Shown piece after piece: positions 1,443-1,478 of a stretch of DNA of 4,893 nt (positions are counted from its first letter, which is position 1; every line of letters begins with the position of its first letter). Both the position numbers and the translations under genes were made by a program. Under the pieces are notes generated by a model, which ran no database searches, was not told the origin of the DNA, and saw only the letters and a program-made list of their open reading frames with translations. The DNA lies in the IMG/VR virus record IMGVR_UViG_2548876958_000007. One strand, 5' to 3'. This DNA is from a virus (Duplodnaviria > Heunggongvirae > Uroviricota > Caudoviricetes).

Positions 1443-1478
1443 CCAAAGTTCACTTTGGTTATTGCGCTTTGTCAGCGC
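1443..1478 (-). promoter_or_regulatory. nutL: boxB hairpin (1464..1478, RNA GCGCUGACAAAGCGC) plus an adjacent second hairpin (1443..1458)
   Basis: Minus-strand 5-bp stem GCGCU/AGCGC with pentaloop GACAA, matching the boxB of phage P22 as I recall it; located about 165 nt upstream of the N start. A 7-bp-arm inverted repeat CCAAAGU..ACUUUGG follows 5 nt downstream. No convincing boxA (CGCUCUU-like) was found upstream. Confidence 0.65.

Follow-up and report, generated by a model that had tools for sequence, protein, structure and literature searches.

The nutL site of a 933W/H-19B-type lambdoid early region: a boxB identical to that of P22 in a leader without a recognisable boxA

Described nut sites and the early region of the window

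In phage H-19B, N reportedly needs NusA but not NusB/S10, boxA being dispensable, and the nut sites are said to carry in their spacer a dyad symmetry, named the 'reducer', which is absent from other nut sites. This work, by Neely and Friedman (2000), is said to have centred on nutR, and the behaviour of nutL is partly extrapolated from it. In phage λ, RNase III reportedly cleaves the stem of the N leader, so that N translation becomes uncoupled from nutL. The order of elements in this leader, as reported by Wilson et al. (2002), is NUTL, RNase III-sensitive hairpin and N ribosome-binding site, and cleavage is said to relieve the autorepression of N. The λ leader between nutL and N has been called 'highly structured' (PMC5725501), and λ requires NusB/S10 (PMC2724277; PMC3177189). 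N-dependent read-through of terminators was demonstrated for the nutR site of H-19B (PMC3526286). Finally, the GenBank record of phage 933W (AF125520) describes positions 9614-9680 as 'nutL; putative N-utilization leftward'.

The DNA analysed here, called the window, is a stretch of 4,893 nt. From a megablast comparison with phage genomes and from its gene content, it was identified as the early regulatory region of a 933W / H-19B-type lambdoid phage. It exhibits 97.8-99% identity to 933W, Stx2 phage 86, PhiR12 and many other Stx phages, with 61-65% of the window covered by the megablast alignments. Among complete E. coli genomes, the highest coverage obtained with the whole window was 76%. 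The identity of about 98% with 933W holds outside the interval between cI and pL, in which the window encodes an ORF with a P63C domain where 933W has stk. The N gene is located at 915-1298 on the minus strand (127 aa, ATG at 1298), and its Shine-Dalgarno sequence AGGAGG at 1304-1309 (minus). The cI gene was found at 3398-4105 (minus), cro at 4184-4411 and cII at 4550-4849.

A single sigma-70-like site was detected in the region 1290-1830, namely the pL promoter candidate TTGATA-17 nt-CATTAT at 1548-1576 (minus). It is flanked and overlapped by an 11-bp inverted repeat (ACCAATAGTTC / GAACTATTGGT), probably corresponding to the OL operators. The 5' end of the putative pL transcript reads AUCAGCAGGACGC (1528-1540, minus), with +1 at the A in position 1540, 7 nt past the -10 hexamer. 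The +1 was placed at this position because the 13 nt are identical to those that open the pL transcript of P22, whose 5' nucleotide is annotated at 30885, and to the start of the λ pL transcript, which we take to be the same 13 nt (the λ record carries no annotated +1). The inferred +1 base is an A in the window and a G in 933W.

Downstream of this 5' end, the 67 nt of the 933W nutL feature match the window without a single difference (67/67 nt, window positions 1530-1464, CGCAUUACU...GCGCUGACAAAGCGC). The nutL sites of H-19B and HK97 differ from the window by 1 to 2 nt: that of H-19B is identical at 66 of 67 positions and reads CGCACUACU, and that of HK97 has one A fewer. The three phages 933W, H-19B and HK97 further share with the window their N protein (98-99%), the boxB, the spacer stem-loop, the local hairpin downstream of boxB and the placement of all these elements relative to pL and N. 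A boxA-less nutL carrying the boxB of P22 is already known, since it is annotated in 933W. Positions 1464-1530 (minus) are read here as the nutL of a lambdoid phage of the 933W/H-19B/HK97 type; together with the mechanism proposed below, this explanation is given a probability of about 0.8.

nutL, nutR and the arginine-rich motif of N

The boxB of nutL, GCGCU-GACAA-AGCGC (GCGCUGACAAAGCGC), lies at 1464-1478 (minus) and is predicted to form a 5-bp stem closed by a pentaloop, with an energy of -7.1 kcal/mol. Its sequence GCGCTGACAAAGCGC has one exact copy in the window, at 1464-1478 on the minus strand. A second copy with 2 mismatches (TCGCTGACAAAGCGA / UCGCUGACAAAGCGA) was found past cro on the plus strand, at 4450-4464, and belongs to nutR. 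For boxB matches with at most 3 mismatches, the chance expectation is 0.10, and two or more matches were obtained in none of 200 shuffled sequences. The outer pair of the stem is compensated between the two sites, being G-C in nutL and U-A in nutR. The whole nutR site, counterpart of the annotated nutR of 933W, extends over 4419-4464 (plus). It comprises a boxA, CGCUCUUUU (CGCTCTTTT), matching the boxA sequence at 8 of 9 positions (4419-4427, plus), a spacer hairpin GGAC-AUUC-GUCC (4434-4445, plus) and the boxB UCGCU-GACAA-AGCGA (4450-4464, plus). The window thus exhibits a site located between pL and the N gene, two boxB copies with a GACAA loop and an N protein with an arginine-rich motif (ARM), as anticipated for nut sites. 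No Rfam family matched either nut site. Weak Rfam matches lie elsewhere in the window, the relevant one being a truncated λ cIII thermometer at 1-21.

The first-pass annotation had taken the boxB in the N leader for the P22 sequence, and this was correct: all 15 nt are identical to the boxB within the annotated P22 nutL. The proteins were compared as well. The N protein of the window matches the Pfam family N_peptide (PF25694) with an E-value of 1e-15, and is 99.2% identical to the N proteins of 933W and HK97 and 98.4% identical to that of H-19B. In a pairwise alignment, its ARM FKGNSRSRRRER and the ARM of P22 gp24, FAGNAKTRRHER (residues ~11-25), share 7 identical and 12 positive positions out of 15 (E = 7e-5), and the common core can be written F-GN-(K/R)(S/T)RR-ER. 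Outside the ARM, the similarity to gp24 is limited to the C-terminal 30 aa, which are the only residues aligned by a full-length BLASTP; the remainder of the two proteins is unrelated. These C-terminal 30 aa correspond to a stretch common to N proteins. A search of the PDB sequences with N yielded no useful match, the P22 and λ N peptides being too short or too divergent.

We then scanned IMG/VR for leaders with the pattern ACAACGAUUC-N6-GAAUCUACG. The scan recovered at least 120 contigs with at least 67 distinct nutL variants, including 65 complete leaders. Within this common leader, the type of boxB tracks the type of the N ARM over the 120 or more contigs. A GACAA loop is accompanied by the ARM FKGNSRSRRRERLKAK or its point variants in at least about 73 of the contigs listed, the exceptions being 1 divergent ARM and 1 unrelated ORF. 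The CGUCAAC loop (C-GUCAA-C) is accompanied by FKGTSRARRRERLKAK in 4 out of 4 of the contigs listed. As for the GAAA tetraloop, 42 of the contigs listed combine it with a called N ORF, and in every one of them the ARM reads FNGSAxGRRRERRAA or GRRRAQRSHL. This co-occurrence is the best evidence obtained here that the ARM would read boxB, and the binding of the one to the other is inferred from these sequence comparisons.

Two further elements of the leader are located 5' of boxB. The first, hairpin 1, UCACC-AGGGC-GGUGA (1508-1522, minus), is present in the minimum free energy (MFE) structure of every leader folded. It has a counterpart at the same place in λ, CACC-AUGAA-GGUG, and the two leaders are alike in the order of their elements, in their 5' end and in this CACC-N5-GGUG hairpin. 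No significant covariation was detected for hairpin 1 within the family, the sequences being too similar. The second element is the spacer stem-loop GAUUC-GAAUAU-GAAUC (1483-1498, minus), which appears in all predicted folds and whose loop varies among relatives. This dyad symmetry is presumably the 'reducer' of Neely and Friedman. The stems of the spacer hairpin are fixed by the IMG/VR search pattern and their invariance among the recovered contigs is uninformative; we relied instead on the comparison between nutL, nutR and the nutL of VT2-Sakai. A common frame, ACAA(C/U)-stem-UACG-boxB, was found in nutL, in nutR (stem-loop GGAC-AUUC-GUCC) and in the nutL of VT2-Sakai (GUCGA-CUC-UCGAC), so that each of the two nut sites of the window has a stem-loop in the spacer preceding boxB.

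The hairpin downstream of boxB and the long-range helix of the N leader

A second, 7-bp hairpin had also been noticed 5 nt downstream of boxB. Its position was correct, but 7 pairs would leave a loop of 2 nt, which is sterically impossible. Folding with ViennaRNA gives a hairpin of 6 bp with a UGAA loop, CCAAAG-UGAA-CUUUGG (CCAAAGTGAACTTTGG; CCAAAGUGAACUUUGG), at 1443-1458 (minus), separated from boxB by the 5 nt AAUAA and with an energy of -4.8 kcal/mol. Moreover, the predicted structures of the complete leader do not point to an independent element. When the whole leader (1540-1280) was folded, the z-score was -3.3 and the structure comprised hairpin 1, the spacer stem-loop, boxB and a long-range helix of about 20 bp. 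The 5' strand of this helix, GUGAACUUUGGGGUGUGGUG, lies at 1434-1453 (minus) and includes a boxC-like sequence, GGGGUGUGGUG, at 1434-1444. The 3' strand, UACCACACC-A-CCAAAGUUCAU, lies at 1311-1331 (minus), and a single nucleotide separates its end from the Shine-Dalgarno sequence AGGAGG. The duplex energy was calculated as -32.9 kcal/mol.

The long helix was recovered in the MFE structure of all 13 foldable reference leaders, which were drawn from 15 leaders of reference phages including the window (in one of the 15, no +1 motif could be recognised). Among the 65 IMG/VR leaders listed, it was recovered in 63. Over 29 distinct strand pairs, 94.5% of the cells are paired, versus 38-42% when the partner strand is slid. 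Both sides are changed in 9 of 20 pairs. The covariation score of the helix was 0.384 versus 0.157 for shuffled alignments, a value reached by none of 500 shuffles; this covariation is largely inherited in the form of recombined cassettes (about 7 distinct arms), and the independent events are fewer than the cells counted. From one cassette to another, the sequence of the distal half is entirely different, yet the two strands remain complementary: GGUGUGGUG/CACCACACC, GAUGCGAUG/CAUCGCAUC, GGUGAAUGCAG/CUGUAUUCACC, GAUUGGAUG/CAUCCAAUC and GAAAGCG/CGCUUUC. The interior of the helix in the window is the 933W/HK97 cassette and not the H-19B cassette.

The N leader of λ folds alike, its GGCUUUGGGGUGUGUG, which includes boxC, pairing with the homologous CACACACCACCAAAGCU. 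There, a boxC-like run GGGGUGUG and a distal CACACC-A-CCAAAG form the homologous long helix beside the Shine-Dalgarno sequence. In the VT2-Sakai / Stx2-II leader, a long helix likewise ends with CCAAAGUU before the Shine-Dalgarno sequence. In the predicted structures, the 3' arm of the second hairpin belongs to this conserved long-range helix, which reaches the ribosome-binding site of N. The local hairpin and the long helix are mutually exclusive because both use the same CUUUGG.

It could be argued that the hairpin at 1443-1458 is instead an autonomous and stable nut element with a role of its own in antitermination, whether as a boxC-type element, as a hairpin bound by NusA or as a pause signal. 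Its 5' arm CCAAAG hardly varies within the family, in which 93.6% of the cells pair, and hairpins with different inner pairs occupy the same position in λ (CAAAGC/GCUUUG) and in P22 (CCAAAC/GUUUGG). It adjoins the boxC-like GGGGUGUGGUG, and it is predicted to form when only the first 112 nt of the nascent RNA are folded. In the full leader, however, its equilibrium probability drops to about 1e-6, and imposing it on the fold carries a penalty of 9.6 kcal/mol. It also exhibits no significant covariation within the family, whose sequences are too similar in this segment, in contrast with the strong covariation of the competing long helix. Finally, when complexes on the nutR of H-19B were footprinted with RNase H, no protection was seen downstream of boxB (PMC3526286), an observation which concerns nutR and not nutL. 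Taken together, these elements make an autonomous role of the hairpin unlikely, and the assignment of its 3' arm to the long-range helix of the N leader is preferred.

The 5' arm CCAAAG of the local hairpin repeats the sequence of the distal strand of the long helix, which adjoins the N Shine-Dalgarno sequence. A competing pair of hairpin and helix exists in λ, in P22 and in the family of the window with different sequences; in P22 as in the window, formation of the long-range helix competes with that of the hairpin 3' of boxB. We tentatively consider a leader with two states, in which the nascent local hairpin would sequester the 5' strand of the long helix until the distal copy is transcribed and the structure switches. 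Such a switch, which we hold to be possible but on the whole doubtful, would determine when the leader is processed and N translated with respect to the assembly of the nutL complex. We know of no description of this competing pair as a switch. By analogy with λ, cleavage of the long helix by RNase III and a regulatory role of the helix may also be envisaged.

Absence of boxA, relation to P22 and use of Nus factors

The boxA core GCTCTTTA (GCUCUUUA) was searched for in the 62 nt between the inferred +1 and boxB. The best match had 3 mismatches (ACGCATTA; ACGCAUUA), and about 66% of 5000 dinucleotide shuffles equalled or beat it, which corresponds to chance level. No boxA match with at most 1 mismatch was detected on the minus strand in the region 966-2272. 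Upstream of boxB, a boxA-like match with at most 2 mismatches was found in none of the at least 65 distinct complete leaders from IMG/VR. The exact GCUCUUUA is present in the nutL sites of P22 and VT2-Sakai. These results agree with the initial observation that nutL has no recognisable boxA while nutR has one, the nutR boxA CGCUCUUUU matching at 8 of 9 positions. An exact GCUCUUUA also occurs at 958-965 (minus), on the pL transcript but inside N, where it encodes Ala-Leu-Tyr (GCT CTT TAC). This candidate was discarded as a conserved boxA because the GCT codon is replaced by GCG or GCA in the homologues of Salmonella phages, Enterobacter phages and P22.

Comparison of the leader with those of P22 and λ did not reveal any conserved boxA that had been overlooked. 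In λ, boxA (CGCUCUUAA) comes directly past hairpin 1; the corresponding slot in the window, as deduced from the alignment with λ, is occupied by AUAUACAAC at 1499-1507 (minus), immediately 3' of hairpin 1. The λ leader further differs from that of the window by a boxB with a GAAGA loop, by another ARM and by the lack of a spacer stem-loop. P22 has a canonical boxA, CGCUCUUUA, 11 nt 5' of boxB and no spacer stem-loop, whereas it shares with the window the boxB GCGCUGACAAAGCGC, the 5' end and the ARM core. The VT2-Sakai / Stx2-II nutL has the same frame as the window, ACAACG-stem-loop-CUACG-boxB, but an exact boxA, GGCUCUUUAA, is located just 5' of its spacer stem, the loop of its boxB is a GAAA tetraloop and its N protein, of 90 aa, is only 41% identical.

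The sequence CGCAUUACU (CGCATTACT; 1522-1530, minus) forms the first bases of the nutL annotated in 933W, and the start of the feature at this point presumably reflects a boxA-like element recognised by the annotators. In λ, transversions at positions G2, C5 and U6 of boxA abolish both NusB-NusE binding and antitermination (PMC3177189). We considered whether nutL could hold here a working but degenerate boxA, 33 nt 5' of boxB, which the spacer stem-loop would bring near boxB and at which NusB-S10 would be weakly recruited. The 933W feature starts exactly at the octamer CGCAUUAC (1523-1530, minus), and its commonest variant, CGCACUAC, found in H-19B and HK97, keeps the G2, C5 and U6 that are critical in the λ boxA; weak binding of NusB-S10 may occur at this H-19B/HK97 variant. 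In addition, the spacer stem of the 'reducer' is said to reduce the distance between nut elements. Against this, besides the match to the consensus being at chance level, CGCAUUACU agrees with the λ boxA CGCUCUUA at 4 of 8 positions only, and it aligns to λ +11-18 (CGCACUGA), the true λ boxA being located 15 nt further on. Moreover, in a comparison of 39 distinct 5' leaders, no other 5' segment proved as poorly conserved as the octamer, which has a column identity of 78.5% versus about 90% in its flanks and occurs in 16 variants. G2, C5 and U6 are kept together in 17 of the 39, and the octamer of the window has a U at position 5. The boxA of H-19B is also reportedly dispensable. A degenerate but working boxA is thus quite improbable, and we conclude from these sequence comparisons that CGCAUUACU is very probably not a boxA.

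The boxA of nutR is itself polymorphic. It reads CGCUCUUUU in the window and in at least 23 contigs, and CGCUAUUUU in at least 36 contigs, including H-19B and 933W. The latter form carries the C5A change, which inactivates boxA in λ by abolishing NusB-NusE binding (PMC3177189).

The identity of boxB with that of P22 had suggested a mosaic in which the N/nut module would be of P22 type. The proposal stands for boxB (15/15) and for the ARM (7/15), for which 'P22-type specificity module' is, at the level of sequence, a fair description; it does not stand for the whole gene, the rest of gp24 being unrelated except for the C-terminal 30 aa, nor for a recent mosaic event, as the arrangement is native to a large group of phages. 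The same leader was found in Salmonella phages that encode a relative of N (68-87% identity) and in an Enterobacter phage with another such relative (69.5%). The absence of boxA is, as far as the leaders compared indicate, a property of a large family of E. coli, Salmonella and Enterobacter phages, inside which cassettes of boxB and ARM are exchanged. A recent horizontal import of the P22 N/nut module into an unrelated immunity region is very unlikely: the common boxB, ARM core and first 13 nt of the transcript, together with the clear exchange of boxB/ARM cassettes within the common leader, speak for it, but N is unrelated to gp24 outside the two segments mentioned, the flanks of boxB differ, P22 having a boxA and an 11-nt spacer without a stem, and hundreds of phages, of the Stx, HK97-like and other kinds, are fixed for this N and this nutL; any exchange would therefore be old and not specific to the window.

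With positions 1464-1530 read as the nutL of a 933W/H-19B/HK97-type phage, the following mechanism can be proposed. Transcription from pL (+1 at about 1540) would produce an RNA in which a hairpin near the 5' end is followed by the spacer stem-loop and then by the boxB hairpin with its GACAA pentaloop. The P22-like ARM FKGNSRSRRRERLKAK of the N protein encoded downstream would bind boxB and, together with NusA, render RNA polymerase resistant to termination. As no functional boxA would be available, the NusB-S10 arm of the λ complex would not be recruited at nutL. The hairpin 5 nt 3' of boxB would be transient in the nascent RNA, and later its 3' arm and the G/U-rich boxC-like run would pair with 1311-1331. 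The resulting helix of about 20 bp would close the leader directly in front of the Shine-Dalgarno sequence of N, as a homologue of the λ N-leader stem.

A nutL without boxA, stems in the spacers and a polymorphic boxA in nutR are consistent with the independence from NusB/S10 reported for H-19B. The anticipated effect of the missing boxA on the use of Nus factors at nutL agrees with the phenotype that H-19B is said to have. As the boxA-less leader is widespread, the sequences suggest that NusB/S10-independent N antitermination may be common rather than a peculiarity of H-19B. Our analysis also brings corrections to previous descriptions: the boxA-like start of the annotated nutL is very probably no boxA, the absence of boxA is shared by the leaders of a large family, and the second hairpin belongs to the conserved N-leader helix beside the N ribosome-binding site. 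The delayed-early genes depend on N antitermination from pL and pR, which in 933W-type phages also governs the expression of Shiga toxin via Q. The recruitment of host factors at the nut sites therefore bears on toxin induction.

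Gene content and regulatory elements around pL

In the interval between cI and pL, the window carries an ORF of 311-330 aa with a P63C domain (1797-2789, minus strand, E = 7e-23), whereas 933W has stk, L0081 and L0083 at this place and the PhiR12 phages have another gene. Downstream of N lies an ORF matching the 'nucleotide modification associated domain 5' (Nmad5; 230-853, minus strand, E = 3e-71), to which the 933W gene downstream of N, L0079, is unrelated. The DUF3024 ORF located immediately downstream of cI (2996-3337, minus strand, E = 2e-31) has its 933W counterpart in L0084. 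The best coverage obtained among complete E. coli genomes by searching with the whole window was 76%, and because none of them exceeded this value, the moron combination of the window is considered uncommon.

Upstream of the P63C ORF, an AT-rich intergenic stretch (2760-2990) contains short palindromes such as TAGCTAAATCATTAATTAGCTA and may hold the gene's own promoter or operator. A hairpin resembling an intrinsic terminator, CCCGGCCUCAGCGCCGGG followed by a U run, was detected just upstream of pL (1770-1787, minus strand) and corresponds to the annotated tM of 933W; the cI/moron transcript is thus predicted to stop at this position, ahead of pL. An 11-bp inverted repeat, ACCAATAGTTC ... GAACTATTGGT, which flanks the pL -35 hexamer on both sides (1551-1593, minus strand), probably constitutes the OL operators of a 933W-type repressor. 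At the edge of the window, positions 1-21 on the minus strand matched the beginning of Rfam family RF01804, the lambda cIII thermoregulator, with 25.6 bits (E = 0.011), under the gathering score; this match is incomplete, the window end falling within the element.

boxA variants in nutR and a probably coincidental boxA core within N

Sequence comparison revealed that the boxA of nutR, the rightward site (4419-4427 in the window; also nutR of the compared loci L001 and L016), is polymorphic within the phage group. Among the matches listed, the window and at least 23 IMG/VR contigs carry CGCUCUUUU, while H-19B, 933W and at least 36 contigs carry CGCUAUUUU. The latter is the C5A change, a substitution that inactivates lambda boxA (PMC3177189).

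An exact boxA core, GCUCUUUA, also occurs within the N coding sequence (958-965, minus strand), at the Ala-Leu-Tyr codons of the conserved C-terminus. Codon comparison showed no codon-level conservation of this core among relatives; it was therefore rejected as a conserved boxA and is probably coincidental.

nutL divergence and boxB specificity

Six divergent members of the nutL family (IMG/VR loci L118, L026, L074, L052, L070 and L076) exhibit GCGC-AGU-GCGC, or CGC-AAU-GCG, instead of the local hairpin CCAAAG-UGAA-CUUUGG. The replacement is positioned immediately 5' of UUUGGGG, and the distal strand of the long-range N-leader helix is altered in step with it (CCAAAGCCCAU).

A third boxB type, GCUC-CGUCAAC-GAGC, was found in nutL of the Salmonella phages Oslo, 103203_sal5 and 29485 (L006, L007 and L015). 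The arginine-rich motif (ARM) of N paired with this boxB differs from the GACAA-type ARM by two residues only, N10T and S13A. With respect to ARM/loop specificity, the GACAA-type and CGUCAAC-type boxB/ARM combinations form a minimal pair of natural origin.
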